A DNA stretch of 20,747 bases. Source: a virus. The stretch's first letter is position 1. Each line of letters starts with the position of its first letter. The notes beneath the pieces were generated by a model, which did not search any database, had not been told where the DNA came from, and was given only the letters and a program-made list of their open reading frames with translations. Shown in pieces: positions 663-20,089 of the stretch. Location: UHGV virus genome UHGV-0017034; one strand, given 5' to 3'. Made by a program: the position numbers and the translations under genes.

Positions 663-965
663 TTAGCGGTTGCTCAAACGTCTATAACGAAGATGAGCGA
701 TCCCCCTATTTGTGCTAACGGTAATTACCGCCCCTTGCGGTGCAATACAAGAATGAATCTGTCCCCAATCATGACCCTTATGGCTTCCAGAAACACACAA
801 ACCATGAATAAGCAATTCAGAGTCACCACCGCCACCACCGGAAGAATGAGCACAGAATGAAATAGTCCCGAAAGCGTCGGCTGTCCAACCGTTAGGAATA
901 TCAAACCATCCTTGATTTGCTTTACCCGCCCTATTCCCCAAAGCGCCATCTACCCAAAATGCCAT
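663..965 (-). CDS. Small FDIPNGW-motif protein, paralog 3 of 3 (100 aa), function unknown
   Basis: ORF; start ATG overlaps the upstream stop (TAATG); shares M-x-(F/Y)-W, FDIPNGW, Gly/His-rich core and TVS motifs with the two upstream ORFs. Confidence 0.6.
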   Translation of the reverse strand: MAFWVDGALGNRAGKANQGWFDIPNGWTADAFGTISFCAHSSGGGGGDSELLIHGLCVSGSHKGHDWGQIHSCIAPQGAVITVSTNRGIAHLRYRRLSNR

Positions 966-1270
966 TAGTGCATTCTCCTGAATTTAAAATAATGCAAACT
1001 ACCTTTACCCAATGTAAAGCTAACGGTAGCACCAGCGCCAACTAAAGAACTAGCGCCCCAACTCCCAGCATCACCAGCATGATGACCTGATTCAATCAAT
1101 CCATTTACAGCCAATTCAGAATCAAGATCACCAGCACCGTTAATGGCTTCCATATGAGCAAAAACAATTCCGCATGAATCAGTAACCCAGCCGTTGGGGA
1201 TATCAAAATATCCACCATTAGCCCAAATACTAATAGCGTTTGACATTCTTTGATTTATCCATCCAGCCAT
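965..1270 (-). CDS. Small FDIPNGW-motif protein, paralog 2 of 3 (101 aa), function unknown
   Basis: ORF; 2-nt gap to the upstream stop; YFDIPNGW, GAGDLDSEL, WG and TVSFTLG...HYFKF motifs conserved with its neighbours. Confidence 0.6.
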   Translation of the reverse strand: MAGWINQRMSNAISIWANGGYFDIPNGWVTDSCGIVFAHMEAINGAGDLDSELAVNGLIESGHHAGDAGSWGASSLVGAGATVSFTLGKGSLHYFKFRRMH

Positions 1271-1272
1271 AA

Positions 1273-1569
1273 TTAAAACTCCATGAATTTAAAATATTCA
1301 ACACCACCTTCACCCCCTAAACCAAAGGAGACGGTGCAGCCAGCAGGAACAAACGAATTTATAGTAGATCCCCAATTGGTCCCACCACGACGACGAGCAA
1401 CGGTCAAACCATCTACGTTAATATGTGCATCAGACCACCCACCACCAGCATTATGACGCATTACAGCGACACCAGCACGAGCAGTACCATAGCCGTTAGG
1501 AATATCAAATACATGCCATTTTAAAGCATCGATTTTAGTATTAATTTCACTACTTACCCAATATCCCAT
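1273..1569 (-). CDS. Small FDIPNGY-motif protein, paralog 1 of 3 (98 aa), function unknown
   Basis: ORF with AAGGA RBS 7 nt upstream; VFDIPNGY, GGGWSD, NWG and TVSFGLG...EYFKF motifs. Confidence 0.6.
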   Translation of the reverse strand: MGYWVSSEINTKIDALKWHVFDIPNGYGTARAGVAVMRHNAGGGWSDAHINVDGLTVARRRGGTNWGSTINSFVPAGCTVSFGLGGEGGVEYFKFMEF

Positions 1570-1582
1570 ATAAGAATCCTTA

Positions 1583-1600
1583 GCGGAGATTTCTCCCCGC
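1583..1600 (-). promoter_or_regulatory. Intercistronic GNRA-tetraloop hairpin between the fiber gene and the paralog triplet
   Basis: Minus-strand RNA GCGGGGA-GAAA-UCUCCGC (7-bp stem with one G-U, GAAA loop), no U-tract, immediately upstream of the paralog-1 RBS. Confidence 0.4.
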
Positions 1601-1607
1601 TTTCCAA

Positions 1608-4600: not shown

Positions 4601-5132
4601 TTGTTTTGTGATTGCTTGCGATGGTTGCATCGGTACGGGATTTAATATCATCAACTTTTTTATTGATGCGGGTGTCCAGTTCCTGAGTTGCTACAGCAGC
4701 CGCAATTTTATTAGCGTTGATGGTATCCGACAATTCAGCTTTAACACCAGCAAGATCGGAAGCAGCTTTATTTTTATTGGCATCGATTGTCGCGTCGGTT
4801 TCGCGTTTAATTACATCAACTTTATTGTTAATTTCTGCATGATTTGCTGCGATAGTAGAATCAGTAGTTTGTTTAATTTCATCTACTTTAGCGTGAATAT
4901 TGCGGTCATTTACTGCAATTGTGCTATCCAATTCTTGTTTGTTAGCATCAACTTTAGATTCTAGTGCCGCGTGAGTTTCAGGAGAAACAGAGATTTGAAC
5001 TACTTCATGATCTCGGTCTTTGGTGAAAATAACATGGTCTTTAAGGTTGATTGCTACCTCACCGACCTGTAATTGTTCCGGCGTTGGTTTTTTGCCAGAA
5101 ACATTTGTTCGTTTAAATTGGATCGACTGCAT
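1608..5132 (-). CDS. Fiber protein (1174 aa) with N-terminal coiled-coil repeats and C-terminal S74 intramolecular-chaperone autoprotease domain
   Basis: Long ORF with GAGGTGA RBS; residues ~50-260 are ~22-aa repeats (D-x-T-I-A-A-N-H...K-V-D-x-I-K); internal GYHFYTERRTDNSLMFDV resembles the P2 gpH / T4 gp37-type distal fiber region as recalled; C-terminus SDRRLKINVEDYEENAVDKVNKLKVKTYDK...LLRERLAAIEAKLG matches the S74 chaperone domain of endosialidase / T5 L-shaped fiber type. Confidence 0.85.
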   Translation of the reverse strand: MQSIQFKRTNVSGKKPTPEQLQVGEVAINLKDHVIFTKDRDHEVVQISVSPETHAALESKVDANKQELDSTIAVNDRNIHAKVDEIKQTTDSTIAANHAEINNKVDVIKRETDATIDANKNKAASDLAGVKAELSDTINANKIAAAVATQELDTRINKKVDDIKSRTDATIASNHKTINDKVDLIKAETDRTIAANHAYAENQLTDTYNNLTGVIAANKQEAADNVAALTRDVEAKNTAIHSKVDNNKSYTDSELARLESRIDAADGSSDGKYIKKHVNTYTDGYLLSKTANYFDDPSARNLDYFGAFRMNDLAGHIAMILHVPHPSGVNHARGFEFTYGSNPVHTVRTYGYDELGHLAYSHRMYHEGDKPTPAEIGAYSKAEIDRLFQKTLNFGIEGGWFKLGTLTMPQQHGRTAKIRLVGGNGYNVGHNGQANIIELVIRCGNNSPKGVVFNAYYTIWHYEQHFCAIPTDGDNYDLYAYYGAHTGFVLAEYQVSSGGVSLNLLDTPEYLGGEKPVADEIFDALNISSFNNFSNRGTLNFAGNHQGQYDIEHLNEQPTNAKKMLRRFRSCAPATIWHETVDDNAYRLATGYEDTNQELLLSATSGLHVKKLTLDGGVTGNSGIDIRRGPNESSHFNFMDYRTGQDVRNGWFGFGDGQTKDFIWWNDNGQNSINLIEDGELHITGGRGQKIVMNSEVALSENARLAVKGGNYGLILRNDGSSFHILTTDLKDSFGTWNTRRPFSYDFAEGGLDLGGTATARCLHLGIDGSTRIEDNMVFRSGSRQSMDYIELIHWGNSNTGRNNVLSMRDSKGFLAEFERVGGTNGVKTRFFGETFTDGTLYLNQMNNSSERFSINNWGNSEVGRAAVMEVGDSKGYHFYTERRTDNSLMFDVAGAFTVHGPSGITIKNSAGARHVWFRDDSDTEKAVIWATDEGILHIRNNHGGQFTHHFQGAMIKLEGRVPYAADQGLIRGEVSGGAYVAWRDRPAGLLVDCQQSVDSAHAIWKAVDWGRNYIAAMDVHCPGDSNNTAAAVLHVQGADYQFHASGEFHATGNGNFNDVYIRSDRRLKINVEDYEENAVDKVNKLKVKTYDKVKSLNDREVIGHEIGIIAQDLQEVLPEAVKTAKIGGFDNPEEILTISNSAVNALLIKAVQEMSEENKLLRERLAAIEAKLG
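1611..1943 (-). other. S74-type intramolecular chaperone domain (C-terminal ~111 aa of the fiber), predicted to be auto-cleaved
   Basis: Domain begins at SDRRLKINVED, with the conserved Ser-Asp-Arg-Arg-Leu-Lys start and a terminal coiled coil. Confidence 0.65.
4355..4985 (-). repeat. In-frame ~66-nt (22-aa) tandem repeats encoding the fiber coiled-coil shaft
   Basis: Successive units DSTIAANHAEINNKVDVIKRET, DATIASNHKTINDKVDLIKAET, DRTIAANHAYAENQL and others, read from the translation. Confidence 0.6.
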
Positions 5133-5161
5133 CGAATCACCTCACTATAAAACAGGAATAA

Positions 5162-5179
5162 GGGAGGCGTTAACCTCCC
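5162..5179 (-). terminator. Hairpin with U-rich tail between the 277-aa gene and the fiber gene (attenuator or weak terminator)
   Basis: Minus-strand RNA GGGAGG-UUAACG-CCUCCC followed by UUAUUCCUGUUUUAU. Confidence 0.4.
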
Positions 5180-5205
5180 GCGTCATGTTTTATTTAGAGA
5201 AGCAA

Positions 5206-6039
5206 TCAGTATTCCCCGAAGTCGATCCGGTCATGGATAGAAACGGCTTCAATCTCGGCTGGTGTCGGTTTTTCTTCTGTGGAATACACTTTCACCCATC
5301 CAGAATTACCGTCTTTCTGGACTGTGCGAACTCGTAAACGTGGTGCGCCGGAAGCGGTGCAAGTTAATTGCCATCCACCATCTTCATTAGGTTGAGCGTG
5401 AATTAGTGAAGTATCAGCACTAAATGGATTAGATGCGCTTGATCCCTGATAAGTTACGAAACGGTTTCCGGCTAACGCTTCGCTATCAATACCCCCTGTA
5501 AATGGAGATACGCCAGCACCAATACCAAAATCACCCTGACGTAAGATCCGGCCTTCGGTCGCGATACCCCTTGCAAGAATCCCGCCATCTGGTTCAAGTT
5601 TAAATTCCAGTGTTACCGCTTTGTTATCGCTACCACGGGTTTTATGTGATGTGACGTAAGCATCATAGATGACATAGTAACCAGTGTTAGCAGCACTATA
5701 ACCAGAGTTCACAACATAGAACATACGGAAGCGTAAAGGTGTTTTATCCTCTACCGCTTTCATCAACATGTCTTGATGTTCGTCATCCAGAACACGGTTT
5801 ACTACTAACGTAGTTGATTCAAGTTTACGATAGCCAGCCAACTTACCAGTAACATCATGGTCATATTCTTCTAACGTCTGGATCTCTGTGGATTCGGTGA
5901 TCGTAGGGAATGCTGCGATGTTCTCGATAGGACTAAATGCAGGATCGAAAAAGTCCGGCTGGTTATCCACCATAGTAGACACGGAGACTTCAACATGCGA
6001 CCCCGTGAAAATGTCTAAGTTATCTTGTGTAATATTCAT
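5206..6039 (-). CDS. Virion structural protein (277 aa) of uncertain role; C-terminus carries the KPTPAEI motif also present in the fiber
   Basis: ORF with AAGGGG RBS 6 nt upstream; C-terminal EEKPTPAEIEAVSIHDRIDF parallels fiber GDKPTPAEIGAYSKAEIDRLF; beta-rich composition. Confidence 0.6.
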   Translation of the reverse strand: MNITQDNLDIFTGSHVEVSVSTMVDNQPDFFDPAFSPIENIAAFPTITESTEIQTLEEYDHDVTGKLAGYRKLESTTLVVNRVLDDEHQDMLMKAVEDKTPLRFRMFYVVNSGYSAANTGYYVIYDAYVTSHKTRGSDNKAVTLEFKLEPDGGILARGIATEGRILRQGDFGIGAGVSPFTGGIDSEALAGNRFVTYQGSSASNPFSADTSLIHAQPNEDGGWQLTCTASGAPRLRVRTVQKDGNSGWVKVYSTEEKPTPAEIEAVSIHDRIDFGEY

Positions 6040-6048
6040 TATTACCCC

Positions 6049-6471
6049 TTAAAAACGCGCTAGATAAGAAAATTTAAGGCTAAGTGTCCCAACGATACCC
6101 CCATCACTAGAATCATCGTCATAATCGGTATTAGAAGCTACTGGAGTGATATCTGAAATAGAGAAGCCCAAATCTTTAAATCGTGGGTTATCCGGCTGAA
6201 TCTGGATTATCTGGCAAATACCCTCATGGATTTTTGTTTCATGAATCTGAGAATATAATTGCATTTCGATAACGCATTCAGCTTGCATTGCATTACCACC
6301 ACGGACCCTATTGTAAGTCTCATTCATTCCGGTAATCCAACAAACCACATCATCACTAAAGCCTTGCTGAGTTTGTTCTACGTTTAAAGCCAGACCTAAA
6401 TCTTGTTCGATAATATCCTGCAAGGCGCGTTTGATTTTCAGTCTAGGCATGTTATTAACGGTAGCGAGCAT
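6049..6471 (-). CDS. Head-tail connector / tail-completion-like protein (140 aa from the RBS-supported start)
   Basis: Start at 6471 (MLATVNN...) is preceded by AGGGGGTACAC, the same SD type as neighbouring late genes; the longer ORF to 6519 would overlap the upstream gene by 65 nt; function inferred from position between capsid and tail genes. Confidence 0.55.
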   Translation of the reverse strand: MLATVNNMPRLKIKRALQDIIEQDLGLALNVEQTQQGFSDDVVCWITGMNETYNRVRGGNAMQAECVIEMQLYSQIHETKIHEGICQIIQIQPDNPRFKDLGFSISDITPVASNTDYDDDSSDGGIVGTLSLKFSYLARF

Positions 6472-6745
6472 GTGTACCCCCTGCCAGAGTGATAAAGCAA
6501 TCAGTTGTATTGTCACCATTGCGCTTAACGTATTGAACTTTGAAACGCTGATTTTCTACAATGACAATATCCCCCTGCTTTAAGTCTCCCTCACGACAAA
6601 ATAAAAATTCTGTCTCTGTCATTACCCCTTGTTCGTCGGTAGTAGTAATTTCATGATAAGCACGAATTGATTTACCACCTTCCACCGAAAATACAGGAGC
6701 ACTTCGGAACATTCTTGATAATTGTGATTCTGATAATTTGAACAT
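6455..6745 (-). CDS. Head-tail adaptor / head-closure-like protein (96 aa)
   Basis: ORF with AAAGGGGGTAACT RBS; small mixed-charge protein directly downstream of the capsid gene; function inferred from synteny. Confidence 0.5.
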   Translation of the reverse strand: MFKLSESQLSRMFRSAPVFSVEGGKSIRAYHEITTTDEQGVMTETEFLFCREGDLKQGDIVIVENQRFKVQYVKRNGDNTTDCFITLAGGTHARYR

Positions 6746-6775
6746 AGTTACCCCCTTTATGGAGTATTTACATAC

Positions 6776-6803
6776 AAAAAAGCCCCACCGTTAGGCAGGG
6801 CTA
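6776..6803 (-). terminator. Rho-independent terminator downstream of the capsid gene (partial terminator raising capsid stoichiometry)
   Basis: Minus-strand RNA AGCCCUGCC-UAAC-GGUGGGGCU (9-bp stem with two G-U) followed by UUUUUUG. Confidence 0.65.
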
Positions 6804-6936
6804 ATTATTATTCTTTAGTTTTACGTTGTTTTTTAACTGTGGCTTTCGCCGTAACCGTCTGAGATTCTTCTTCCTGAGATGGAATCAGATTTTCTTCCCC
6901 CAAATCGGGGGAAGGTTCAGATGGTTCTACGTTAGT

Positions 6937-8943
6937 TCATTCAGCGGAGATGTGAAGAACTTTCAGAGCTTCCGGCTGGGTTACAACGTAATCCAGATCT
7001 ACCCAGATACGCGGAACGATAGCAGACTGTGCGCGGTAGGTAGTGTCATCAATGTCAAGTTCCAGACCACCCCATTCACCGATGGTAATAGCGTCGAACG
7101 ATCCCAGAACGATGTGGTCTACCGGAATAACACCAGAAGTAACTACGTCGTAACCAGCCAGTTTACCGTTTTCGATGATATAACCGGAAACACCGTTATC
7201 TTTCAGGGTAGATTCCAGTTCAGCAGCAGTTGCACCGCTCATTGCAAACTTGATCGCCTGAGCAGGAACGCCAGCGTCGGTCAGTTTAGCAATTTCTTTC
7301 AGGAAGTCTTTATAAGAGAAAGCAGCTTTCTTCTCTACGCGACCAGCATCTACCAGTTGTTTAATCACACCAGCCGGACCACGAGCATTTTCTTTATCAG
7401 ACAGAATCAGTTGTTCCAGTTTGATGCGAACAGCCTGGTTAATGTGATCAGTGATCAGAGTAGCGATGCCGGGTACGGTTTTTAGGCTCGCTCTGCTGAG
7501 CGGATTCCCACCAGCAAACGTCTTAGGAGACAGTTTCACGTTTGCAAATTCAGCTTTACCTTCCGGCGCAGCACCGTTTTCATCAACGAAGCCGAAAGAT
7601 TCAACGCTGGAAGCGGTCATTTTAGGAATAGCGGTCGGCGAAGTCAGACCAGACAGGACTTTCACACCAAGACGACCCAGAACGGATTCCGGCAACAGCA
7701 TCGCTACATAGGAATCATTCAGCAGTTTTTCGTCGGTTACAGCGGTCAGAGTAGCTTTGGTGTTACCATCAGCAGCAGCACGCATAGCAGCAGTCGGAAC
7801 GAATACAGAGCCACCGCGAGCAGCACGACCACGCTGCATAGTTGCAGTAGCAGCCATTGCAGAAAACTCGGCTTCGTGAGCACCCAGAGCTTCACCATCT
7901 ACCAGAGAGCGAATTACGTTGTTCAGGTCAAAAGTTTTTTCCATTTTAGAGTCCTTAATTTGTTGTTCGTTATTACGTTGAGCATTGACGAGATTATTTA
8001 GTGCCTTAGTGCGGAATGCTTCCGGCGTCATATCTTTAACTGCCAATGCGCGTTCTAATTCTTCGTCGTTAATATTTAGCTCGCGTGCAATTTCGCGAAT
8101 TTCTAATTCGTCTTCTTCGGAACGTTCAGCCACTTCCTCGATTTTTTCTTCTTCATCCGGAGCGGCTTCACGTTCTTCTTTTACTTCTTCTGCTTCCCGA
8201 ACAGTTGAACTATCATCATCAACACTTTCAGGATGTTCAGCGTCTTTTCCGTCTTCGAGATTTTCATCTTCTTTATTCTCTTCAACTTGGCGCTCTTGAG
8301 TTTCTTCAACTTCCGATTCTTTATTTTCTTCTACCGGAGCTTCTTCAACCGGAGCGGATTCTTGTTCTTCTTTGATTTCTTCGATTTGTTCTTTAGTCAT
8401 ATCGCGTTTAGCCTCCAAATTAACTGTGATAGTATTTAGAGAGCGATTTAAACCGACCGAATCGTCCGCCGGGACCGTCACAAATGAAATTTCGTGCGGA
8501 ATCCATTTAGAAACAATGAGTTGCGATTTAGCGTAATCGATGTGATATTCTTTAATGTCATAGCCGACAGAAATTTTTTCCATCGTACCTTCAATAACTT
8601 TATTACGAATATCATTAGCCAAAGTGCCATGTTTAGAGAATTTAACCAGAGCACGGCCTACGTTATCCGCATCGATTCGAGCGTCGCAGACTACACCTAA
8701 ATGATTATCGAAAATATGATTGAACAGCAACGGAGCGTTATTATTCAGACGAGACAGATCAACCGCTTCCGGTGTATGTACCAGAATTTCATCTAATACC
8801 ACCATTTCTTGATTTTGCTCATCCCAAAATTGGCGCTGATAAGGCTGTGTACTTGAGAAAGCAATTTCAAATTCGTATTGATCGTTATGCCCTTCGTTAA
8901 TAACTCCACCGTAACCGTTAAGATCGCGGCGAAATTTAAGCAT
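6937..8943 (-). CDS. Prohead protease - scaffold (delta domain) - HK97-fold major capsid protein encoded as one 668-aa ORF
   Basis: N-terminus has HK97-type protease motifs (PLLFNHIFDNHLG with His, KISVGYDI with Ser, HEISFVTVPADD); residues ~180-330 are an acidic coiled-coil linker; C-terminal ~340 aa has major-capsid character; AAGGTGA RBS. Confidence 0.85.
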   Translation of the reverse strand: MLKFRRDLNGYGGVINEGHNDQYEFEIAFSSTQPYQRQFWDEQNQEMVVLDEILVHTPEAVDLSRLNNNAPLLFNHIFDNHLGVVCDARIDADNVGRALVKFSKHGTLANDIRNKVIEGTMEKISVGYDIKEYHIDYAKSQLIVSKWIPHEISFVTVPADDSVGLNRSLNTITVNLEAKRDMTKEQIEEIKEEQESAPVEEAPVEENKESEVEETQERQVEENKEDENLEDGKDAEHPESVDDDSSTVREAEEVKEEREAAPDEEEKIEEVAERSEEDELEIREIARELNINDEELERALAVKDMTPEAFRTKALNNLVNAQRNNEQQIKDSKMEKTFDLNNVIRSLVDGEALGAHEAEFSAMAATATMQRGRAARGGSVFVPTAAMRAAADGNTKATLTAVTDEKLLNDSYVAMLLPESVLGRLGVKVLSGLTSPTAIPKMTASSVESFGFVDENGAAPEGKAEFANVKLSPKTFAGGNPLSRASLKTVPGIATLITDHINQAVRIKLEQLILSDKENARGPAGVIKQLVDAGRVEKKAAFSYKDFLKEIAKLTDAGVPAQAIKFAMSGATAAELESTLKDNGVSGYIIENGKLAGYDVVTSGVIPVDHIVLGSFDAITIGEWGGLELDIDDTTYRAQSAIVPRIWVDLDYVVTQPEALKVLHISAE

Positions 8944-11077: not shown

Positions 11078-12982
11078 TTAGAACGATGTTATCCAGCTAC
11101 GGCCTCTATTTGGACGTCTGACGATGTTTTGACGTTGTGGTCGTGTGATTGGCTTAGTTTCTTCTATTTGCTCGTTAGATTGCGATTTAGGAGCTTTTAC
11201 GGGTTCTTCGACAACACGGTTTAAGCTGTCTTTCATTGCAATGAGTTTATCCCATGACATTTTTGAAAGAACGTAGCGAGAAGCCGCTGTAGCATACACT
11301 GCGCAGTCGAGCGCCTCGTTCCTAACGCCTGGGTTCTTTACCCATCTCACGCCAGTAGTAGTACGCTTGACAGATTCACTTAAAAGCTGATCGAGATAAT
11401 CATCAGGAACGGTTCCTGATATTTCTAAGCTAATGTGAGGATTGTCTTTCAGGTTTCTAACCAACATTTCACGAAATGCAGTTTTACCCACGTTAACACC
11501 CAACATAAGCAATTCATGACCACCTGTGCGGGTAGGTTTAACCGGAATGATCGGAGCGTTACCAGCAGAACTACCTTTGATAGCGTGTAAGTTCTTCCAC
11601 TTGCCGCAAATACGGTATCCAGCTTGAGTGAATCGACCGTTCGATGTATCAAGGAAGCTGGCGAGCATAGGAACACGATCACCCGATACAGTAGTAAATT
11701 TGGTTTTATGGAAGTTGATTAATCTATCCCATACAGGGGATTCATATCGTTCACAGTTATGATCGTAAAAGCTGCGATGATCCAGAATATAAATCTTATC
11801 CTTTGCCACGCCCATGATTGTAGTTTCTGCGCGATCTAATTGCTGGTCAGTACCCGCACACAAGAAAATCACGTCATCAGGGATATTCTCGATAGAAACA
11901 TCTGTTTTTAGTTGTTCCAGTTCATTTGCTTCTACTGCCGTGTCCTGATCGTCGTATACCTTGCCTAACACGGTGTTATAAAATGATTGTAAATCAAAGG
12001 ATTGCCACGCATGACTAAAATCAACCACACAAGCGCGGATCGTGCTGAAAGGTGAATACAGACGGCTGATCCAGAATCCTGCTACCTCACTTTCACGGGT
12101 TGCTCTCCACTCTCCTTGTGCCACCGCCCTGATCCGCTCTCCTTCTGTCCATGCGTTCTTACAGTGGGGGCAAATATAACGAGCGGTATCAGGATCGGGT
12201 AAGTTCTTACCATCAATGTTACGCCATTCAAACTGTACGTTTTCCCACTCGATCACCTGGTGTCTACCGCAATGAGGACACGGAACAAAAAACATACGCA
12301 TATCGCTTGATAACCATTGCTGGTTAATGCTTCCGAGCTTACTGGTCGGGGTACTGGATACGACTAATCGGCCTTCATCGCCAAAGGTAGTTAAACGGTT
12401 AGCAGCCAGTGCCACCGGATCACCTTCTTCTGAGGCTGTAGCAGCATCGATTTCGTCAAGCAGTCCGACCTTTGCTGTCTTACCGCGTAGGGTTGATGGA
12501 CTAGTAAGCGATACCATATAAAGGAAGTGGTTTGATTTGAGCTGGAGCTGATTGTTGTTATTAACAGAATTGCGATCATTCTTGTCTGTAACCACGTCTT
12601 TTAATGCATCACATGCTTCGATAGACGGTCGGATCTTACCCGCGAGATATTGAGACATTTCTTTAGCGGTTGATTGTCCGATAATCATATTGCATGGATC
12701 GTTAGCCATCTGGTTAAATAGGATGCCGTTCAAGATGGTAGTCTTTCCGATCTGCGCACTGGTCATCAGAACATACTTTTTCTTGTTCTCAAGGAAAGGA
12801 GCATCAATCATACCTTTCTGGAATGACAGCAATTTAACTTTATCCCCAGCTTGAGGACCATCTACCAGCACCATATTCGCTTCGCACCATTCAGAAGGAA
12901 GGAGCTTAGGCGGTGGCGTAATATATTTGGCTGCATTTTTGAGAATCTTTTTTAATTTGGCCTTATTTGAAATCAGTTTCAT
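11078..12982 (-). CDS. terL: Terminase large subunit, lambda GpA family (634 aa)
   Basis: Walker A-like [10 protein letters not shown]; motifs matching lambda gpA as recalled ([11 protein letters not shown] vs LTAGIDSQLDR; [11 protein letters not shown] vs RRNEALDCFVYA; CPHCG...YICPHC zinc-finger-like pairs); GAGGGT RBS. Confidence 0.9.
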
Positions 12983-13067
12983 GTAATTACCCTCATTACG
13001 AAATATGAAGGTATTTATTAAATTGTTGATATTTTGATAAATACGGGTATTAATTAAAGGGGGTTGT

Positions 13068-13670
13068 ATGCTAATTAATCAGCAACAAAGAGATGAATTA
13101 GAATTAGCCTTGTCTTGTACCGATCATGAATATCGTTTACCAGTTAAGCATAAGCATTTAAAAACCGACTACACTACATCTGGCTTTAGTCGTGAGGAAG
13201 CGAAAGAGATTTTAATAGAATTTTACCGCGATAATGGTTATACAGACGTTCACAACTTCTTTAAGAAGCATAGAACATCACATACAGAGTTTCGGAGAGT
13301 CCGAGATTGGTTTGATTTTGATATCAAGCGTTATTATCGAGTGGATGACGGTCCTATCTATCGGTTGCAGTGGAAGCCGATCCGAGAAGTGTTGAAACAG
13401 AAGAGATTGAATCACGCAATTACACGCTATCGTAACGAGGCTTTCAAGAAAGGCTATGGTGATACAAGGGAACTATTCGTTGAACTCGCTAACGTGCGTT
13501 ATAGCCACTATTACAACGATCCTAAAGGGTTCTTTGAAGTGCTTCGCAAGGTTGATATAAGTCGGGGTACATACTATTCACGGTTGAAGAAGTACGGGAT
13601 TAAGGCAGAGTTCTTTATGAGTATTGACGATGGAGAACTTTTTCCGATAAAATGTAAGTCCTCTAAATAA
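13068..13670 (+). CDS. Basic DNA-binding-like protein (200 aa) with a C-terminal HTH motif
   Basis: AAGGGGG RBS 4 nt upstream; C-terminal [16 protein letters not shown] resembles the HTH of the two small paralogs at 13705 and 17159; divergent from terL. Confidence 0.55.
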
Positions 13671-13704
13671 AGGTGAACATTCACTTTAATTTGGAGAAAT
13701 GACT

Positions 13705-13932
13705 ATGACTACTAAAGCTACTCGCGGTCGTCCTGCCCGTTTTAACGCTGAACAGATGGCTGATATTGCCTACGCTTACTATACAGCGGATCGTGGTAAG
13801 GAAGCGAAAGAACAGATTCTTAGTGAACATGGGATCTCAATCGCCCAATTCTATAAGAATATGAAGAAGTTAGACATTAAATTCTATGTTCAGATCGGTG
13901 ATGGTCAGATCGTAGAAGCAACAGGTTTTTGA
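13705..13932 (+). CDS. Small HTH protein (75 aa), paralog of the 17159-17338 product
   Basis: N-terminal ATRGRPARF; HGISIAQFYKNMKKLDIK HTH-like motif; GGAG RBS is correctly spaced for the ATG at 13705 rather than 13699. Confidence 0.55.
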   Translation: MTTKATRGRPARFNAEQMADIAYAYYTADRGKEAKEQILSEHGISIAQFYKNMKKLDIKFYVQIGDGQIVEATGF

Positions 13933-13947
13933 GTTTTGATTCTCTTT

Positions 13948-13972
13948 GCCACTCTTCGGAGTGGCTTTTTTG
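13948..13972 (+). terminator. Rho-independent terminator (plus strand)
   Basis: GCCACUC-UUCG-GAGUGGC perfect 7-bp stem, UUCG loop, followed by U6. Confidence 0.75.
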
Positions 13973-14034
13973 TATCCGCACAAAACTGAGCACATCTCTA
14001 TGATCTATAGATGCCAGCAAAAATGCTGTTATCT

Positions 14035-14071
14035 ATAAAAACAAAAAGCCCAGCGCAATTATGCGCCGGGC
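14035..14071 (-). terminator. Rho-independent terminator (minus strand), convergent with the previous one
   Basis: Minus-strand RNA GCCCGGCGC-AUAAUU-GCGCUGGGC (9-bp stem with one G-U) followed by UUUUUGUUUUUAU. Confidence 0.7.
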
Positions 14072-14077
14072 GATTAA

Positions 14078-14893
14078 TTACAGTCCGAAGTGTTCCAGTG
14101 ATCCAACATTCTGGCGGAGACGTTCAGCCGCTTTATTTTGAATCAGAATAGTGTTATTTGGCTGCGGCAGTTTAAGAGTTGCTTTCTGTTCTTCTTCCAG
14201 AACACCCAATTCCACCAACACCGGAAGCACATCAACAGTAAAAGAAAGCTGATAGTGAGTGTTCATGCTGCAAAACGGTAAAGCGGAATCATTAGCAACA
14301 TACCCACACGGCTTGTTATTTTCATCATAGACGCGTTCAATGTAGCCAGCAGTACGTAAGGCCGTCAGTGCTTCTTTAACCTTCGTAGCGCCCTTTTTAG
14401 CGCCTAACAGACGGGTCATTGAATGGCTATCAACGGATTTGCGATAATGAAGTTCAATCAGTTGTTTGTTTTCGCGAGTTTTCTTTAACGCCAGTTCGAT
14501 CCAGTCGGTTTCTTCAAAGTCTGCATACGGGTTAACGGCTAAACGTTCCTGCCGCAGTTTTTCATTTTCTTCTTTCAGTCGTTTCCATTCCTGAATAACA
14601 ACCATTCGACGCTTAACATCGTAACCAGTGACAAGAGTCAGCGTCATTTCTTCGTCTAAGTGATATTCGGTTTGTTCACGTCCACACTGATCAAGATAGG
14701 TGCGCTCAAAACTGAGCACATCTAATTCCAGAGCATCGAGCATGGATTTAATATCACGTTTAACGTTTTTGTGTTCTTTTCCGGTAAATTCAGCGATCTG
14801 ACGAGAAGACATGGTCAGTGGTTTGGTGTTATCAACAACCAGAGACACGGAAGCAGTTTTAACAGCAGTATTCATAGCAGTAACAGTATTCAT
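14078..14893 (-). CDS. Rha-family phage regulatory protein (antirepressor-like), 271 aa
   Basis: N-terminal LTMSSRQIAEFTGKEHKNVKRDIKSMLDALELD...FERTYLDQCGREQTEYHLDEEMTLTLVTGYD matches the Rha domain pattern as recalled; AAGGGG RBS. Confidence 0.6.
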   Translation of the reverse strand: MNTVTAMNTAVKTASVSLVVDNTKPLTMSSRQIAEFTGKEHKNVKRDIKSMLDALELDVLSFERTYLDQCGREQTEYHLDEEMTLTLVTGYDVKRRMVVIQEWKRLKEENEKLRQERLAVNPYADFEETDWIELALKKTRENKQLIELHYRKSVDSHSMTRLLGAKKGATKVKEALTALRTAGYIERVYDENNKPCGYVANDSALPFCSMNTHYQLSFTVDVLPVLVELGVLEEEQKATLKLPQPNNTILIQNKAAERLRQNVGSLEHFGL

Positions 14894-14981
14894 AATTAAA
14901 TTCCCCTTAAACGGTTTAGTGATTTGGTCCTCCTAGTTCCGGCAGCATCACCGGAACATTTTTATTTATGATAGAAATTTA

Positions 14982-15314
14982 TTACCAATCGATTTCTACT
15001 TGGTCTTCTTCATAATAAGGAATCGCATATTCATAACGCCAATTTTCGATGATTTCACGTTCTTCATTAGTAAGAAGGTGATTGTTAACTGGAGTCGCAT
15101 TGTGATTACCAGCTTCGAATTGCTCGCGAACTTCCAGCATTGCATGAATACCAGTTAAGGTCATCAGATCAAACGGAACATGCATACTACGGGAGATAGT
15201 TTCACGGGATACGCCCCAATCATTTTCTACATGGCTAGGGGTTACAGAAACGGTTTTGCCGGAGATTTTAACAGTCCAGTCATACAGGGATTTAGTGATG
15301 GTAAATTCTTTCAT
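14982..15314 (-). CDS. Hypothetical protein (110 aa)
   Basis: ORF with AGAGGA RBS 7 nt upstream; no recognisable family. Confidence 0.6.
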   Translation of the reverse strand: MKEFTITKSLYDWTVKISGKTVSVTPSHVENDWGVSRETISRSMHVPFDLMTLTGIHAMLEVREQFEAGNHNATPVNNHLLTNEEREIIENWRYEYAIPYYEEDQVEIDW

Positions 15315-15370
15315 GTTACATCCTCTTTACAAATCTAGGTCAAATATAATAAAAGTTGTCAAGTGCGATA

Positions 15371-15399
15371 ATCATAAAAAAGTCATAAATTTTTGTCAA
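15371..15399 (-). promoter_or_regulatory. Sigma70-type promoter (minus strand) TTGACA-17-TATGAT
   Basis: -35 at 15394-15399 and -10 at 15371-15376 read on the minus strand; lies ~50 nt upstream of the 14982-15314 gene. Confidence 0.55.
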
Positions 15400-15412
15400 T
15401 ATACCTTGACAA
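15393..15412. promoter_or_regulatory. Operator-like inverted repeat TTGTCAA-N6-TTGACAA overlapping the -35
   Basis: Perfect 7-bp inverted repeat; the 9-mer GTCAAGTGC nearby (15358-15366) recurs at 16778-16786. Confidence 0.4.
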
Positions 15413-15434
15413 GACGCCAAAGGGTTGACCTAAC

Positions 15435-15893
15435 TTACAGCATATCTAAGCCTTCATCGTAACCGTAGAAGCCACCGTGAGAAGAGAAAGCGATTGGTGC
15501 GTAGTCTTCGTCTTCCTCATCTTCTTCATCTTGTTCTGGGGCTTCCTGAGCGGTTTCTTTGCCGTAATCAGCCATAATCTGGTCAAGATCGGCGATCCCA
15601 TAGTAAGAGCCTAAATCAACGTCATATTCACGGACTTGAAACGGCAGATCATCACGAACAATAATTGCTGGAATATCGTTGTATTGAAGACGACCTTCAT
15701 CAGTAAAACAGTCGATGATCACAGTAGGACGACCATTTCGTTTTAAAGCGTAGAAAGCAGTTGAGTAGTTGGAGTCTTCGGAATGACGAATGATGTTATA
15801 ACCACGATTAGCGAAAACTTCTAGCATATGGAAGTTGCCATAGTTTTCAGAGTCCAGACCCAGAAGTACGAAAGGAGTTTTAGTATTGATCAT
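15435..15893 (-). CDS. Hypothetical protein (152 aa) with a strongly acidic C-terminal tail
   Basis: ORF with GAGGA RBS; C-terminus EAPEQDEEDEEDEDYAPIAFSSHGGFYGYDEGLDML; no recognisable family. Confidence 0.6.
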   Translation of the reverse strand: MINTKTPFVLLGLDSENYGNFHMLEVFANRGYNIIRHSEDSNYSTAFYALKRNGRPTVIIDCFTDEGRLQYNDIPAIIVRDDLPFQVREYDVDLGSYYGIADLDQIMADYGKETAQEAPEQDEEDEEDEDYAPIAFSSHGGFYGYDEGLDML

Positions 15894-16085
15894 AGTGGAA
15901 ATCCTCTAAAAGAAAGTGAATCAAGTAAGTTCACTATTATTTATAACGAGAATTTTTTATCTATTTGGAAGTGATTGGATTCAGTCGGGCTAAAGCCCTC
16001 CTTCATATATTTGATTAAATCATCATCAAAACGAAGAAGTATCTTTAGAATATAAGAATCTTTCTTTTGGAGAAATTATAATCAG

Positions 16086-16350
16086 GAAGCAATTTAGCAA
16101 CCGAAGGTTGCAATCCCGAAGGGATACCAATACCTTTCTAGAAAGTGATTGTTACTCACTTCGTTCGTTTACTAGAATCAGTTAGTAACTAGTATTAAAT
16201 CCCTTTCTAAGAAAATCCTTTCAAAAGCGAGTGAACGCCGTAGGCGTGAACGTGAGCGAAGCGAACTATCCAATCCCTTTCGAATCCTGCTTGCAGGTCT
16301 TAGAAGGTGTTGATGGGCGCTTCGCGCACGGCTACGCCGTATTCTTTTTG
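16086..16350 (+). ncRNA. Candidate structured noncoding RNA (hairpin-dense, ORF-free, ends at a terminator)
   Basis: Hairpins GCAACC-GAA-GGTTGC (16097-16111), ATCCC-GAA-GGGAT (16113-16125), palindrome CTTTCTAGAAAG (16134-16145), AGTGA/TCACT, ACGCC-GTA-GGCGT, CCTGC-TT-GCAGG; stops in all frames; weak TATAAT at ~16074; 5' end uncertain. Confidence 0.3.
16317..16350 (+). terminator. Rho-independent terminator (plus strand) with tandem hairpins
   Basis: GCGC-UUC-GCGC then ACGGC-UAC-GCCGU followed by AUUCUUUUUG; no protein-coding gene upstream on this strand. Confidence 0.6.
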
Positions 16351-16471
16351 CGAGATCTTTCTTGAACGTAGTGAGAGAAAACGAGCAAAAAGGAGAACGT
16401 TAGTTCGAATTTTATATTCTATGGTCTGTGGGGTGAAATGTCTTTCAAGATCATACACTTATGAGATTGAA

Positions 16472-16593
16472 GTGTAGGGTTAGTGTAGGTGTGTAGGTTT
16501 CATAGTGTAGGTTTGAGGGTGTTATAGTGTAGGTTTACTGACTAGTGTAGTGTAGGCCAATCCCTTTAAAGCGTAGGTTTGTAGTGTAGGTTT
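16472..16593. repeat. Iteron array: about 9 copies of GTGTAGG(TTT)
   Basis: Copies start at 16472, 16483, 16491, 16505, 16527, 16550, 16584, with a variant GCGTAGGTTT at 16571 and a half-site at 16545; spacing often 11 or 22-23 bp; flanked by an AT-rich tract (16594-16700). Confidence 0.7.
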
Positions 16594-16698
16594 TTCATCA
16601 AAAATTTTGATAGAAAATTCTTGTATATTATTTAACCGGAAAATCACCAAAAATCGCTGTAAATGCATGATTTAAAAAGAATTATCAAAAGGTCGCCG

Positions 16699-16707
16699 TG
16701 CTATAAT
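16699..16707 (+). promoter_or_regulatory. Extended -10 promoter element TGCTATAAT
   Basis: TG-n-TATAAT perfect match; -35 weak. Confidence 0.35.
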
Positions 16708-16787
16708 AGGTTATAAAGGTTGATAATCGTTATCCGCCATTTTCACACAAAAATTTTGATAGTCATTTCTCGCTTAGGTCAAGTGCA

Positions 16788-16816
16788 TTGACAACTGTCA
16801 AGGATTATTTTATACT
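16788..16816 (+). promoter_or_regulatory. Sigma70 consensus promoter TTGACA-17-TATACT with overlapping palindrome TTGACA-AC-TGTCAA
   Basis: -35 at 16788-16793, -10 at 16811-16816, exact 17-bp spacer; GTCAAGTGC 9-mer at 16778-16786 shared with the 15358 region. Confidence 0.6.
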
Positions 16817-17158
16817 TTTTCTCATTGGTAGGGGTTGAAATTTTCGAAACAATCCCCATATTGATGATAAACAAGATTTTTTCGTGTATAAATACATGCA
16901 TGAAATGATTGTTCACTTCTGAAAATCCCCTGATTCACTGTTAACACACACAGCACTGGTTAAACACACAGTGCCTTTTCGATTGAATAATGTACGAATT
17001 GATTAATTATTAATCTTCTCTTTAGCAATTCGTGCTCCCGCTGATCAGATATACAGTGGTTTTGCAGGGTTTTCTGAAATGACTTTTATAAATAGAAGTA
17101 TCGAGGGCGAAAAGCTCTTTTTATTGTCCTTATTAATCCACATTTGAGGAATCTACTT

Positions 17159-17338
17159 ATGGCTAGACCTGTTAAGTTTACTCGTGAAATGATTGTTGAT
17201 ATTGCTAAACGCTTTTATGGCGATACTGAACGAGGCGGCGAGAATTTCTTTAAGAAGGAAGGAATTGATAGAAGCGGATTCTATAAGCTAATGAAGAAAT
17301 ACGAAATTCAGATAAAGATTAACGTTCAAGTTTGTTAA
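17159..17338 (+). CDS. Small HTH protein (59 aa), paralog of the 13705-13932 product
   Basis: GAGGAA RBS 9 nt upstream of ATG 17159 (the track ORF begins at a TTG at 17144); MARPVKFTREMIVDIAKRFY...GIDRSGFYKLMKKYEIQ parallels the other paralog. Confidence 0.55.
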   Translation: MARPVKFTREMIVDIAKRFYGDTERGGENFFKKEGIDRSGFYKLMKKYEIQIKINVQVC

Positions 17339-17379
17339 TCCACTTTCACTGAGAATTATACGATGGCTTTAAAAATAAA

Positions 17380-17409
17380 AAGCCTCCCTTGTTGCAGCAA
17401 AGGAGGCTT
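17380..17409. promoter_or_regulatory. Long hairpin between the small HTH gene and the 333-aa gene; terminator-like only in minus orientation
   Basis: AAGCCUCC...GGAGGCUU with inner UUGC/GCAA pairing; plus-strand A-run upstream gives a U-tract only on the minus strand. Confidence 0.4.
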
Positions 17410-17454
17410 GAAATGAACAATTAAAACTAACACAGCATTCAGGAGTATTTATAA

Positions 17455-18456
17455 ATGAAAAATTCTAAGCGCATCACCTTCAACCTGTTTATTAAATCCA
17501 ACGGCAAACTGAACATTACCGTCATGGAAGGTAAAGCAAGCAAACAAGACAAATCCTTTGAAGTAGTATCCGGTAAGACTCTGACCGAAATGCGTCAGAA
17601 TGCTGGCATCAAAGACGGTGCTGAATGGCAGATCACTAACCGTTTCGACAAACGTCACGTTAAACCTACACTGGTAGAAGGTGAATCCGTTTATTGCTTC
17701 GCTCGTGCTGTTAAAGCCGATGAAACTTACTATCTCGCTGTTGTTAAAACTGCTTCCGGCTTCCGTGCTGTAATGCATCACAAGAGCAAGCGTAACGAAT
17801 ACGGCGTAGAGACCCAGGAAGTCGCAAAACGCTTCCGTACTGTTGCTACCGAATCCACTGTAAAGGATGTTTCTGGTACTGTTAACACCGTTAAAGGCGG
17901 TTCCTTCTACAACCACGCATTACAGGTTACTTCCTCCTTCTTCTGCAAAAAAGAAGCACAGAAAGAAGTTGCTCCGGTAGTAGTTGAAGAAGTTAAAGAA
18001 GAAGTTGCAGTGGTTGAATCTTCCGAAGTTGAAGCACTGAAAGCACGCATTGCTGAACTGGAAGCTGAAAACGCATCTCTGAAAGCTGAACTGGCAGCAC
18101 AGGAAACCACTTTCGAAGTAGCAGCGGTTGAAGTTGAAGCAGTTGAAGAAAAATCCATTGATGAAGAACTGGAAGAACTCCTTAACTATCGCTGGGGTAA
18201 CGGTGAAAAAGTAGAACAGGAAGAACAGAAAGAAGCTGATCCGGTAGTAGTTCCGGTTGAAGAAAAATCCGCACCTGTTACTAACTTTGAATCCCTGCGC
18301 AATAACTTTATGGCTAAATTCAAAACCACTTGGGAAGATACCGAAGAAGAACAAGAAGAGATTGAAGTAAACGAAGACGAGATCCGCGAAGCACAGATGG
18401 CACTGCATGACGCTATCTACGACACCAACTACAGCGCCTACGCATACGCAGCTTAA
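17455..18456 (+). CDS. Hypothetical abundant protein (333 aa): N-terminal globular domain plus acidic Glu/Val/Ala-rich coiled coil
   Basis: AGGAG RBS; codon usage visibly different from neighbours (CGT, CTG, GGT, TCC, ACC, GAA, AAA, TTC, TAC preferred), typical of highly expressed E. coli-type genes; leucine-zipper-like EALKARIAELEAENASLKAELAA. Confidence 0.8.
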   Translation: MKNSKRITFNLFIKSNGKLNITVMEGKASKQDKSFEVVSGKTLTEMRQNAGIKDGAEWQITNRFDKRHVKPTLVEGESVYCFARAVKADETYYLAVVKTASGFRAVMHHKSKRNEYGVETQEVAKRFRTVATESTVKDVSGTVNTVKGGSFYNHALQVTSSFFCKKEAQKEVAPVVVEEVKEEVAVVESSEVEALKARIAELEAENASLKAELAAQETTFEVAAVEVEAVEEKSIDEELEELLNYRWGNGEKVEQEEQKEADPVVVPVEEKSAPVTNFESLRNNFMAKFKTTWEDTEEEQEEIEVNEDEIREAQMALHDAIYDTNYSAYAYAA

Positions 18457-18471: not shown

Positions 18472-18714
18472 ATGATGAATCAAAACAAAGAATTTCTGGG
18501 TAATCTGATGTTAGAAATTACCAAAATGAAAGAAAGAATGGTAGCGATGGAATCAGAGATTAAAACACTTAAAGCTGATAATAAGGCGTTGAGAAAGTCC
18601 TTAAAGCTGATTGATGAGACTAATGCGGTTATGATGGATCATGTATTCCCTGAGTGGCGAAATGAAACTAAACCTACACAACATAAGAAACTTACACTTC
18701 GAATTGTTGCATAA
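18472..18714 (+). CDS. Small coiled-coil protein (80 aa)
   Basis: GAGGGG RBS; heptad-like MKERMVAMESEIKTLKADNKALRKSLKLI; starts 16 nt after the upstream stop. Confidence 0.55.
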   Translation: MMNQNKEFLGNLMLEITKMKERMVAMESEIKTLKADNKALRKSLKLIDETNAVMMDHVFPEWRNETKPTQHKKLTLRIVA

Positions 18715-18736: not shown

Positions 18737-18812
18737 CTAGTAAGTTTAGGTTAGGTTTGCACAACAAAGATGAGGTTATAATGAACATAATGCTACATTA
18801 TTCTTTAAAGCC

Positions 18813-19426: not shown

Positions 19427-19978
19427 TTAAGACACATCAAATTCATCGTCTTCTTCTGGTTCTTGTTCCGGTTCATCCATTAATGGTAATTCTTCTTCCT
19501 CGTCTTCTCCCAAATCTGCATTTTCGAACAAGTCCCCTACTTCATTTAAACGACGCTCGATAATCTCTCTTAGCTTATTCTTCAATGTTTTCTGGTCATT
19601 GGCAGATTCGAGAATTTCTAGGGCATCGATTGTGGCGATCTGCAAAATAGTCTGCTTCACTTTCCCGCAATATTCCGCTAGCTCCTGCTCCACATACCCG
19701 ACGGGAATCAGGAGATTCATCGCTTCCTGGTTCTCTCGTTCGGCTGCATCTGCTAATGCTCTCTCACGGCGTAATTTCTCTACGTCGATTTGTTCCTTGA
19801 CAGTAGTTTCTTTAAGCGGGTTGATGATATTTTTCAAGACCCATTCTGTTCCTTCTTTGGCTGGCACGCGGCGGGTATTGGTATTAAATGGCATTCCTCG
19901 TTCTTGCCATTTCTTAGCGGCGTTAATTGTATAGCCGTATAAACGGGAAATTTCTGTAAGGGTTAATTCTTCTTTCAT
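19427..19978 (-). CDS. terS: Terminase small subunit, lambda Nu1-like (183 aa from the RBS-supported start)
   Basis: LTLTEISRLYGYTINAAKKWQERGMPF parallels the lambda Nu1 N-terminal HTH (IFGASIRTIQNWQEQGMPV as recalled); acidic C-terminal tail; GGAGGA sits 8 nt upstream of Met-6 (19978), while the first ATG at 19993 has no SD. Confidence 0.65.
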   Translation of the reverse strand: MKEELTLTEISRLYGYTINAAKKWQERGMPFNTNTRRVPAKEGTEWVLKNIINPLKETTVKEQIDVEKLRRERALADAAERENQEAMNLLIPVGYVEQELAEYCGKVKQTILQIATIDALEILESANDQKTLKNKLREIIERRLNEVGDLFENADLGEDEEEELPLMDEPEQEPEEDDEFDVS

Positions 19979-20089
19979 CCGGTTATCCTCCATTAAATTT
20001 GCGTAAAATTATTTATCTGATCTGCGCATTCAGGAGAGCGCCTAAAACGCTTTATAACGAAGGGAAAGATCGAGGCATGGAAAGGGATT

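Follow-up and report, generated by a model that had tools for sequence, protein, structure and literature searches.

Three small genes of the UHGV virus genome UHGV-0017034, here called A, B, and C, raise the question of what kind of proteins they encode and on which DNA these proteins might act. All three lie on the plus strand of the stretch of 20,747 nucleotides (nt) that was analyzed (called the window in the following), and all of their products are basic, with isoelectric points (pI) of 9.0-9.6. As judged from homology, fold, and charge, a module common to the three proteins should represent a sequence-specific DNA-binding domain of the helix-turn-helix (HTH) type, and we read A, B, and C as sequence-specific DNA-binding phage regulators derived from one duplicated module of about 60-65 residues, giving this reading a probability of roughly 0.55. 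Most likely, the proteins form an unannotated, lineage-restricted family of a very familiar kind, that of the small phage HTH proteins, and are likely to be ordinary regulators.

The relatedness of the three proteins had originally been proposed because of a short motif, [FY]Y-x-x-[LM]KK-x-x-I, and all three motif peptides were located as described (Table 1), in genes whose earlier lengths of 200, 75, and 59 residues agree with the present gene calls. The motif occurs exactly three times in the 41,490 codons of the six reading frames, always in A, B, or C, compared to a shuffle expectation of 0.0015, and none of 2000 shuffles contained three or more matches. The alignments are significant over the whole domain and not for the motif alone: B and C share 35% identity over 57 residues, which is nearly their full length (BLASTP, E 2e-9), while residues 133-179 and 40-87 of A align with C (E 5e-5 and 5e-4, respectively) and residues 40-97 of A with B (E 4e-4). 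In profile comparisons by hhalign, a profile of B and C matches both module 1 (97.0%, E 9e-11) and module 2 of A (96.8%, E 2.6e-10), and the two A modules match each other (80.7%, E 1.3e-5). Because both halves of A are recovered in this way, A is, as judged from its sequence, an internal tandem duplication, and the family comprises four modules; the previous count of three HTH domains is correct for the number of proteins, but not for that of the domains, since only the C-terminal module of A had been noticed. Each of the four modules has a F/D-T/S-R-E cap ahead of helix 1 and, at its C-terminal end, a β-strand or hairpin, and their MAFFT alignment shows the cap as F-T/S/N-R/A-E, followed by the helix-3 motif and a C-terminal I-K/Q-x-alternating-hydrophobic stretch. 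The N-terminal arms noticed in B (RGRP) and C (ARP) are real, with R-P being invariant in 31 homologues of B and C, and are absent from both A modules.

Table 1. Positions of the genes, modules, and candidate control elements discussed in the text.
Feature	Position	Strand	Basis or remark
Gene A, 200 residues, pI 9.4	13068..13670	+	helix at the N-terminus, followed by an HTH/β-hairpin module twice in tandem
A module 1, about residues 36-100	13173..13367	+	AlphaFold2, hhalign, BLASTP
A module 2, about residues 128-196	13449..13655	+	AlphaFold2, hhalign, BLASTP
Motif peptide of A, residues 164-179	13557-13604	+	in A module 2
Gene B, 75 residues, pI 9.0	13705..13932	+	RGRP arm, three helices, β-hairpin
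Motif peptide of B, ISIAQFYKNMKKLDIK	13834-13881	+	
Gene C, 59 residues, pI 9.6	17159..17338	+	ARP arm, three helices, single C-terminal β-strand
Motif peptide of C, IDRSGFYKLMKKYEIQ	17264-17311	+	
Divergent control region between the large terminase gene (TerL) and A, 85 bp	12983..13067	.	presumed promoter region of the A-B operon
Hairpin resembling an intrinsic terminator, at the end of the A-B operon	13948..13965	+	terminator scan
Candidate target, leftward promoter region	15336..15431	-	promoter 15399 to 15371, TTGACA-17-TATGAT, 11/12
Candidate target, rightward sigma-70-like promoter region	16778..16816	+	promoter 16788-16816, TTGACA-17-TATACT, 11/12
Conserved hairpin and T-run, about 35-55 nt 5′ of the C start, upstream boundary of the C cassette	17103..17125	+	terminator scan
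Strong GC hairpin with flanking A-run and T-run, directly 3′ of C, downstream boundary of the C cassette	17380..17409	.	
TAAATAC box copies	13011-13044, 16888-16895, 17445-17452, 6764-6770; in relative L071: 614, 2587, 3507, 4554		
p333, coiled-coil/acidic protein of 333 residues	17455-18456	+	downstream of C
Further iteron copies	17662-17672, 18670-18698, 18743-18758	-, -, +	within the p333 gene and after the operon
TerL, lambda-gpA-type large terminase	11078-12982	-	
p188	19427-19993	-	

The HTH reading agrees with AlphaFold2 models computed from the family alignment, which predict three-helix modules of the HTH type. The model of B reaches a mean predicted local distance difference test (pLDDT) value of 80.6 and consists of helices 15-27, 32-41, and 46-55 and a β-hairpin (61-64 / 68-71), preceded by an arm (residues 1-8) that is disordered or of low confidence (pLDDT <50). 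In the model of A (pLDDT 73.9), an N-terminal helix is followed by the same three-helix-plus-strands unit twice, with helices 42-56, 61-67, and 72-82 and strands 86-92 and 97-99 in module 1, a linker of about 30 residues of low confidence, and helices 134-147, 152-161, and 166-175 and strand 180-186 in module 2, while the chain of C stops after one β-strand. The modules are accordingly modeled with the tri-helical HTH fold that defines HTH_7 and allied families. A catalytic N-terminal domain of the resolvases was found neither in a Pfam scan of A, B, and C nor in the AlphaFold2 model of A.

The class of the HTH modules can be approached only via remote homologues. None of the three proteins reaches the Pfam gathering scores of HTH_7, HTH_23, HTH_28, or HTH_Tnp_1; A and C have no Pfam match at E values up to 1, and B has only unrelated sub-threshold matches. 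The distant B homologue encoded by L071 (IMGVR_UViG_2823530352_000002), the most remote of the relatives found, matches HTH_Tnp_1, HTH_7, and HTH_23 at E values of only 0.02-0.045, and the best match of a sequence-profile search of the PDB, the two-HTH protein 2lvs_A, is not significant (E 0.25). An exhaustive HMMER search of 1.84 billion representatives with a profile made from B, C, and both A modules returned only 33 proteins at E values up to 1e-3. Once the family members and a few C-like singletons are set aside, multi-repeat proteins remain. Nine of these were scanned against Pfam, and each of the nine is composed of tandem HTH_7, HTH_23, HTH_28, or HTH_Tnp_1 domains, with weak scores per repeat (at most 21 bits), the significance arising from the sum. 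Ten repeats were excised from two of these proteins for profile comparison, and two of the ten, scanned singly, exceed the Pfam cut-off of HTH_7 (38 and 29 bits vs 23.8). The B/C profile matches the ten repeats with 95.8% (hhalign, E 6.8e-9, 54 columns), aligning GRP arm with GRP arm and the helices in register, whereas reversed and 30 column-shuffled versions yield at most 1% and E values of at least 0.055. Because of this difference between the match and its controls, we place the modules in the Hin/resolvase HTH_7 class, as a putative divergent resolvase/Hin-type (homeodomain-like) HTH family with an added β extension. The GRPR arm of Hin lies in the minor groove of the DNA. Since this is the location of the N-terminal GRP arm in the Hin class, the previous description of the arms as AT-hook-like is apt for B with its invariant RGRP and partly apt for C with its ARP; in B, the sequence T-R-G-R-P-A-R is present in the stretch predicted to be disordered or of low confidence.

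The start codons of the two short genes appear to be settled, with B starting from the ATG at 13705, as the upstream ATG at 13699 is too near to the GGAG, and C from the ATG at 17159, in agreement with its homologues, which all begin with MARPVKF or MAKPVRF. These short starts are used in the RefSeq annotation and in every homologue, and longer versions of the reading frames use less plausible codons. For A, 43 homologues were recovered, every one of them annotated as "hypothetical." The helix-3 sequence of B, GISIAQFYK, is almost invariant among its homologues, and so is helix 3 of A module 2 across the relatives, which points to a conserved target of B and A module 2. C occurs in five allelic types, in which helix 3 varies at positions 1, 3, and 5 and the positions of the hydrophobic core are fixed, a pattern as expected of a surface that would read DNA. 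The C arm reads ARP or AKP in these types, but GRP in type IV; type I contains only A-R-P.

From these features, the module may be described as an N-terminal arm (RGRP in B, ARP in C, presumably lost in A), a three-helix bundle of the HTH_7 type with the sequence G-I-S/D-x-x-x-F/Y-Y/H-K/R-x-L/M-K-K in its predicted helix 3, and a C-terminal β-strand or hairpin, which would set it apart from typical HTH_7 domains. By analogy to Hin, helix 3 would read the major groove, with the arm inserted into an adjacent AT-rich minor groove. A might act as a covalent "pseudo-dimer" on a bipartite site, while for B and C, binding of the monomer or of a dimer held together by the β-strand may be envisaged.

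A view on the organization of related loci shows that the three genes are kept together. The gene order consists of TerL (minus strand), A and B (plus strand) with the terminator, some variable genes including Rha (minus strand), a gene for an acidic protein of 150-163 residues (minus strand), about 1.25-1.7 kb of non-coding DNA, and finally C and a gene for a p333-like protein of 309-331 residues (both on the plus strand). This order is retained in almost all relatives, from E. coli, Salmonella, Proteus, and metagenomes, down to 43% identity for A. In L071, the genes for A and B, an open reading frame of 66 residues, C, and the gene for a p333-like protein are arranged consecutively and in the same direction, beginning directly behind an iteron-like array of different sequence (TTCAAATGCTACTTT), and TerL is located elsewhere. 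Because of the conserved order and the clustering in L071 away from TerL, A, B, and C belong together, and the adjacency of A and TerL is not essential. As a side observation, an in-frame TGA codon breaks gene A of L071 (5554-6354) within helix 3 of module 1, which could represent a pseudogene, a sequencing error, or a read-through codon.

The putative roles of the proteins are suggested by where their genes lie. C is read as a Cro-like early regulator because it is located downstream of a strong rightward promoter and its leader and upstream of p333; its tiny cistron is enclosed by two terminator-like hairpins and opens the rightward operon, to which p333 also belongs. The upstream hairpin is present in all C types, with stems that differ yet remain complementary (GAGC/GCTC, GAGCG/CGCTC, and GGGC/GCCC), and the downstream one, which the terminator scan predicted for just the minus strand, is conserved in every relative. 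Genes A and B form an operon by themselves, equipped with a control region and a terminator, and run divergently to the late operon for terminase, head, and tail proteins; an equivalent hairpin follows B in two relatives (L004 and L006). With low confidence, A and B may be regarded as the second component of a switch, either a lysogeny-maintenance repressor or a late-switch factor, because of their gene position and because no other recognizable repressor is present. The annotation of the related prophage of E. coli strain UTME-9 and family scans of its small proteins reveal no CI/Cro-type or other recognizable repressor, and, apart from the Rha-family protein, no obvious candidates for regulators other than A, B, and C are seen in the prophage. 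A more far-reaching proposal would regard A, B, and C as the complete lysis-lysogeny switch of a widespread, hitherto unstudied ycdX-integrating enterobacterial prophage lineage that lacks a CI/Cro-type repressor, made wholly of recombinase-type HTH paralogues. In such a switch, the tandem protein A would be the maintenance repressor, a "dimer" in a single chain, while the one-module proteins B and C would compete for the same half-sites. We consider this proposal doubtful; if true, it would represent a new architecture of a phage genetic switch and a new family at the Pfam level.

The rightward operon between 16788 and 17454 shows a succession of signals, consisting of the strong promoter, a leader of about 300 nt that is structured (fold z = -3.5), the hairpin with its T-run, C, and the second, strong terminator-like hairpin before p333, where the space is too short for a separate promoter. 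Such a series of terminators suggests that the operon is regulated by antitermination or read-through; no antiterminator was identified.

Candidate targets of the proteins are found at the two best sigma-70-like promoters of the region, as identified by a promoter scan (15371-15399 and 16788-16816). The rightward one lies about 340 nt 5′ of C and overlaps with three half-sites (GTCAA/TTGAC/GTCAA) spaced at 9-10 bp. A palindrome TTGAC-N4-GTCAA is found in 19 of 36 related loci, independently of the A, B, or C type. The leftward promoter would drive p110 and Rha and is surrounded by five GTCAA/TTGAC half-sites, including a palindrome at 15393-15412, whose arms (TTGTCAA-N5/6-TTGACAA) are conserved in the Salmonella and E. 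coli relatives, and the half-site spacings are close to multiples of 9-10 bp. The presence of the palindrome tracks no type of A, B, or C in the 36 loci, and the GTCAA/TTGAC palindromes, which had also been proposed originally, represent candidate targets. The control region between TerL and A may also contain a promoter or operator, as suggested by its sequence, which includes two outward-facing TAAATAC boxes at 13011-13018 (minus strand) and 13037-13044 (plus strand); these are conserved in the E. coli, Salmonella, and Proteus relatives, with spacers of 18-38 bp. The same box, T(T)ATAAATA(C), often TATAAATAC, recurs about 70 and 270 nt 5′ of C, at the ribosome-binding site of p333, and near the start of p152, and it precedes most transcription units by 20-60 nt in nearly all relatives including L071, oriented with the downstream gene. 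Many copies are not accompanied by a good -35 element. The box is probably a family-specific promoter element.

Several observations weigh against the proposed role of the proteins as specific regulators. DNA binding by A, B, and C is predicted from homology, fold, and charge, and the Cro-like and repressor roles are read from gene position. Pfam, PHROGs, and NCBIfam contain no family with a significant match to any of the three, and the link to HTH_7 is a transitive one, the repeats having been reached through the family's own profile. No operator is assignable to A, B, or C, and the 9-mers perfectly associated with the C or B type occur only within the genes and their immediate flanks. The TAAATAC boxes are not enriched in non-coding DNA beyond generic AT-rich promoter words. 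For the conserved GTATTTAT/ATAAATAC boxes, which are oriented toward downstream genes, the non-coding enrichment of about 8-fold (rank 27 of 3603 7-mers) is similar to that of generic TATAAA-like words; they may thus simply represent promoter -10 elements and were rejected as a specific operator.

The assortment of the allelic types belongs to the same side of the balance. Types of A, B, and C were found in all combinations in 42 loci and in searches of E. coli genomes, and they assort independently of every neighboring element. The relative L011 is about 95% identical to the window except for two blocks, A plus B and 16580-17420, an arrangement that would fit a split immunity module in which A/B and the block of rightward promoter, leader, and C are replaced together; the type combinations in the 42 loci refute this idea. 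The co-variation of repressor, antagonist, and operators known from lambdoid immunity regions is thus not seen, and the leader upstream of C is mosaic and not tied to the C type. The original prediction of one dedicated circuit of three modules is not supported in this form: the three genes recombine independently of each other. They always occur together and are clustered in one distant relative.

Among the alternatives, the one that survives best regards A, B, and C as architectural or recombination-accessory proteins, small basic winged-HTH DNA benders such as Xis, Cox/Apl, or Fis, which would aid excision by the serine recombinase, replication, or packaging instead of controlling promoters. 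Their size, basic charge, and HTH-plus-wing layout resemble those of Xis and Cox/Apl, the phased GTCAA half-sites at distances of about 10 bp recall Cox/Apl arrays, and a directionality factor is needed by the large serine recombinase of the prophage, which is represented in the UTME-9 element (about 37 kb, splitting ycdX) by a "recombinase family protein" of 559 residues encoded separately from A, B, and C. Set against these likenesses are the distance of about 10-30 kb between the A, B, and C genes and the recombinase gene and attachment sites, and the lack of matches to the HTH_17, Xis, and Cox families in Pfam and PHROGs. The known directionality factors of large serine integrases do not belong to the HTH proteins and work through protein-protein contact. 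An architectural role is thus a slim possibility.

Another alternative assigns A, with or without B, to DNA packaging, as the small terminase or a cos-recognition accessory of the gpA-type large terminase. No Nu1-type gene precedes TerL, merely 85 bp separate A from the divergently oriented TerL, the different TerL types have their first 16 codons conserved, and arm-plus-HTH domains of the same class occur in Sf6-type small terminases, the corresponding family PF20901 matching one related repeat protein. However, a full-length small terminase is encoded elsewhere, since p188 matches the whole profile of phrog_57, "terminase small subunit" (E 7e-16), and its counterpart in L071 shows a weak match to Pfam Phage_Nu1 (E 1.3e-5). 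Moreover, A is found at 100% identity with a TerL of 58% identity in E. coli KSC64, and a TerL of 94% identity with an A of 53% in L011, while the two genes are not adjacent in L071. The AlphaFold2 model of A also lacks the oligomerization domain typical of small terminases, and neither Pfam nor PHROGs yields a small-terminase match for A, B, or C. Because p188 matches phrog_57 and the A and TerL types are uncoupled, A is not needed as a small terminase and was rejected as such; a packaging role is unlikely, and the terminase function of A quite improbable.

Some further observations concern the same genes. The split between p188 and TerL, which are about 6.4 kb apart with the whole regulatory and replication region in between that is partly on the opposite strand, is unusual. 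In KSC64 (L012), the body of TerL has been swapped over window positions 11240-12930 (58% identity), while 100% identity to the window is retained from the start of TerL (its first 16 codons) through the 85-bp control region to gene A. Each gene lying between portal and p188 has several alleles, deeply divergent from one another and freely recombining.

The original prediction had also named GTGTAGG iterons as possible targets, which leads to the alternative of A, B, and C as origin-binding proteins, with A resembling a plasmid Rep initiator composed of WH1 and WH2 domains. The iteron motif AGTGTAGGTTT matches the window 22 times with up to two mismatches, compared to 5.4 matches expected, and at least seven copies are clustered at 16471-16593. 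The two tandem helix-plus-hairpin modules of A, the position of the A, B, and C genes flanking the iteron region, and the start of gene A directly after the iteron-like array of L071 would be in accord with such a function. The distribution of the arrays argues for a different partner: among the 36 loci in which C was located, several of which are near-duplicates so that the counts are not independent, arrays of six to nine GTGTAGG copies are present in all 15 with a type-I p333 (at least 93% identical to that of the window), and only zero to three copies in the other 21. The arrays are independent of the A, B, and C types, as both array states occur together with one and the same A type (identity at least 89%), the A of L011, which is 53% identical, accompanies nine iterons, and B types as well as C types I, II, and III are all seen with full arrays. 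Since the C cassette, which is exchangeable, is situated between this array and p333, pure linkage is an unlikely cause of their co-variation. Because the array follows the p333 type, whatever the types of A, B, and C, the iterons probably belong to p333, the probable replication initiator, for which no family match was found. Further iterons occur inside and after the p333 operon (Table 1), and the correlation of protein type and array that would mark an iteron-binding initiator is not observed for A, B, or C. Consequently, the iterons were discarded as targets of A, B, and C, and an origin-binding function of these proteins is very unlikely.

Finally, a chance resemblance of non-functional reading frames, which might be suspected from the lacking database annotation and the shortness of B and C, is refuted by the motif statistics (three matches vs 0.0015 expected) and by the conservation of intact frames and starts at 43-70% identity across E. 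coli, Salmonella, and Proteus, and is hardly conceivable with profile-profile E values of about 1e-10 and confident AlphaFold2 models.

The non-coding DNA around the iterons shows additional features. The region 16040-16400 is highly structured on the plus strand, with a minimum free energy of -112.5 kcal/mol (z = -4.8), and contains an inverted repeat (16243-16263 / 16318-16338) and several small GNRA-like hairpins, but has no match in Rfam; it may represent a phage non-coding RNA or part of the origin. The sequence between 15320 and 16580 is about 90-95% conserved between the mosaic relatives compared. A short repeat, AATCCCTTT/AAGGGATT, is present at 16198, 16272, and 16559 and recurs within the large non-coding region in each of the seven loci that were compared, and the related words TAGGGAT and AGGGATG are the 7-mers most enriched in the non-coding DNA of the family (34 non-coding vs 3 coding occurrences). 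Adjoining this origin-like region, p152 (15435-15893, minus strand), a protein of 152 residues with a strongly acidic tail (EEDEEDEDY...) and an aromatic C-terminus, is kept in all relatives. It has no family match and might be a replication or anti-host factor.

As judged from reading frames and family scans, the window covers most of a temperate prophage, with TerL followed on the minus strand by genes for portal, a protease-capsid fusion, and tail proteins. The DNA between 12900 and 18800 matches 63 of 5,426 complete E. coli genomes, in every case in the chromosome, and neither a plasmid nor a deposited phage. The ends of related E. coli and Salmonella loci adjoin the genes for the PHP-domain protein (ycdX) and ghrA, as in UTME-9, and relatives of the prophage also occur in Salmonella and Proteus. 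The nearest proteins of isolated phages show only 45% (TerL) and 36% (portal) identity, and the collection searched contains no phage match of protein A and no similar phage record, either by DNA or by protein A. A literature search for ycdX plus prophage yielded nothing relevant to a characterized relative. The closest phage match to the packaging genes is a block of lambda-type terminase, W-like, and portal genes at the beginning (1-7557) of a 141-kb record classified as T4-like Straboviridae (L007, PQ671644.1, Escherichia phage DCP80), which may be a chimeric assembly or an unusual module.

The analysis provides three "hypothetical" proteins with a fold and a class, namely a predicted resolvase/Hin-like HTH with a β extension. 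About 1% of the complete E. coli genomes contain these proteins, as do prophages of Salmonella and Proteus; no domain library recognizes them, and they belong to a compact prophage lineage without an isolated phage relative in the collection searched. The family appears worth an entry as a domain family, while it will hardly surprise a specialist. With regard to DNA binding, the interest shifts to the promoter regions for A, B, and C and to the iterons for p333.

A comparison with known systems shows both shared and distinct features. In size, basic charge, and position at the head of an early operon, the proteins resemble lambda Cro/CI, P22 Arc/Mnt, P2 Cox, and 186 Apl; like these small switch proteins, the paralogous modules could in principle share operators, and the C-terminal β-strand might serve in dimerization as in Cro. 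Unlike them, A, B, and C are non-homologous to these proteins and have no HTH_3, Arc, or HTH_17 match, and, in contrast to lambdoid immunity modules, their types do not co-vary. The linkage of two tri-helical modules in A recalls two-HTH binders such as the paired domain, the N-terminus of Tc3/Tc1 transposases, CENP-B, and archaeal Cbp2 (2LVS), from which A differs by the lack of a significant sequence or structure match and by a β-hairpin on each module. Among the 1.84 billion representatives, no remote relatives were found other than HTH domains of transposases of the IS3/IS911 and related types (HTH_Tnp_1, HTH_23, and HTH_28) and multi-repeat proteins built from these domains, with the C-like singleton P0117 nearly reaching HTH_Tnp_1 (22.9 vs 24.1 bits); unlike the transposase proteins, A, B, and C are prophage proteins without a transposase context and carry the β extension.

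The C-terminal domain of Hin invertase and of the gamma-delta/Tn3 resolvases (HTH_7, PF02796) shares with the family an N-terminal G/A-R-P arm followed by three helices and the helix-3 signature G-I/V-S-x-x-T/F-L/F-Y-R/K-x-L. In contrast to these recombinases, A, B, and C are stand-alone proteins without a catalytic domain, contain the extra C-terminal β-strand or hairpin, with A being duplicated and devoid of arms, and are too divergent for any Pfam threshold. The same broad class of arm-plus-HTH proteins includes the small-terminase domain of the Sf6 gp1 type (PF20901) and Mu Mor/C (PF08765), both of which match the related repeat proteins. A, B, and C differ from them in matching neither family and in lacking a dimerization domain of the Mor type, while Mor/C shows that an HTH of this type can serve as an activator of phage late genes.

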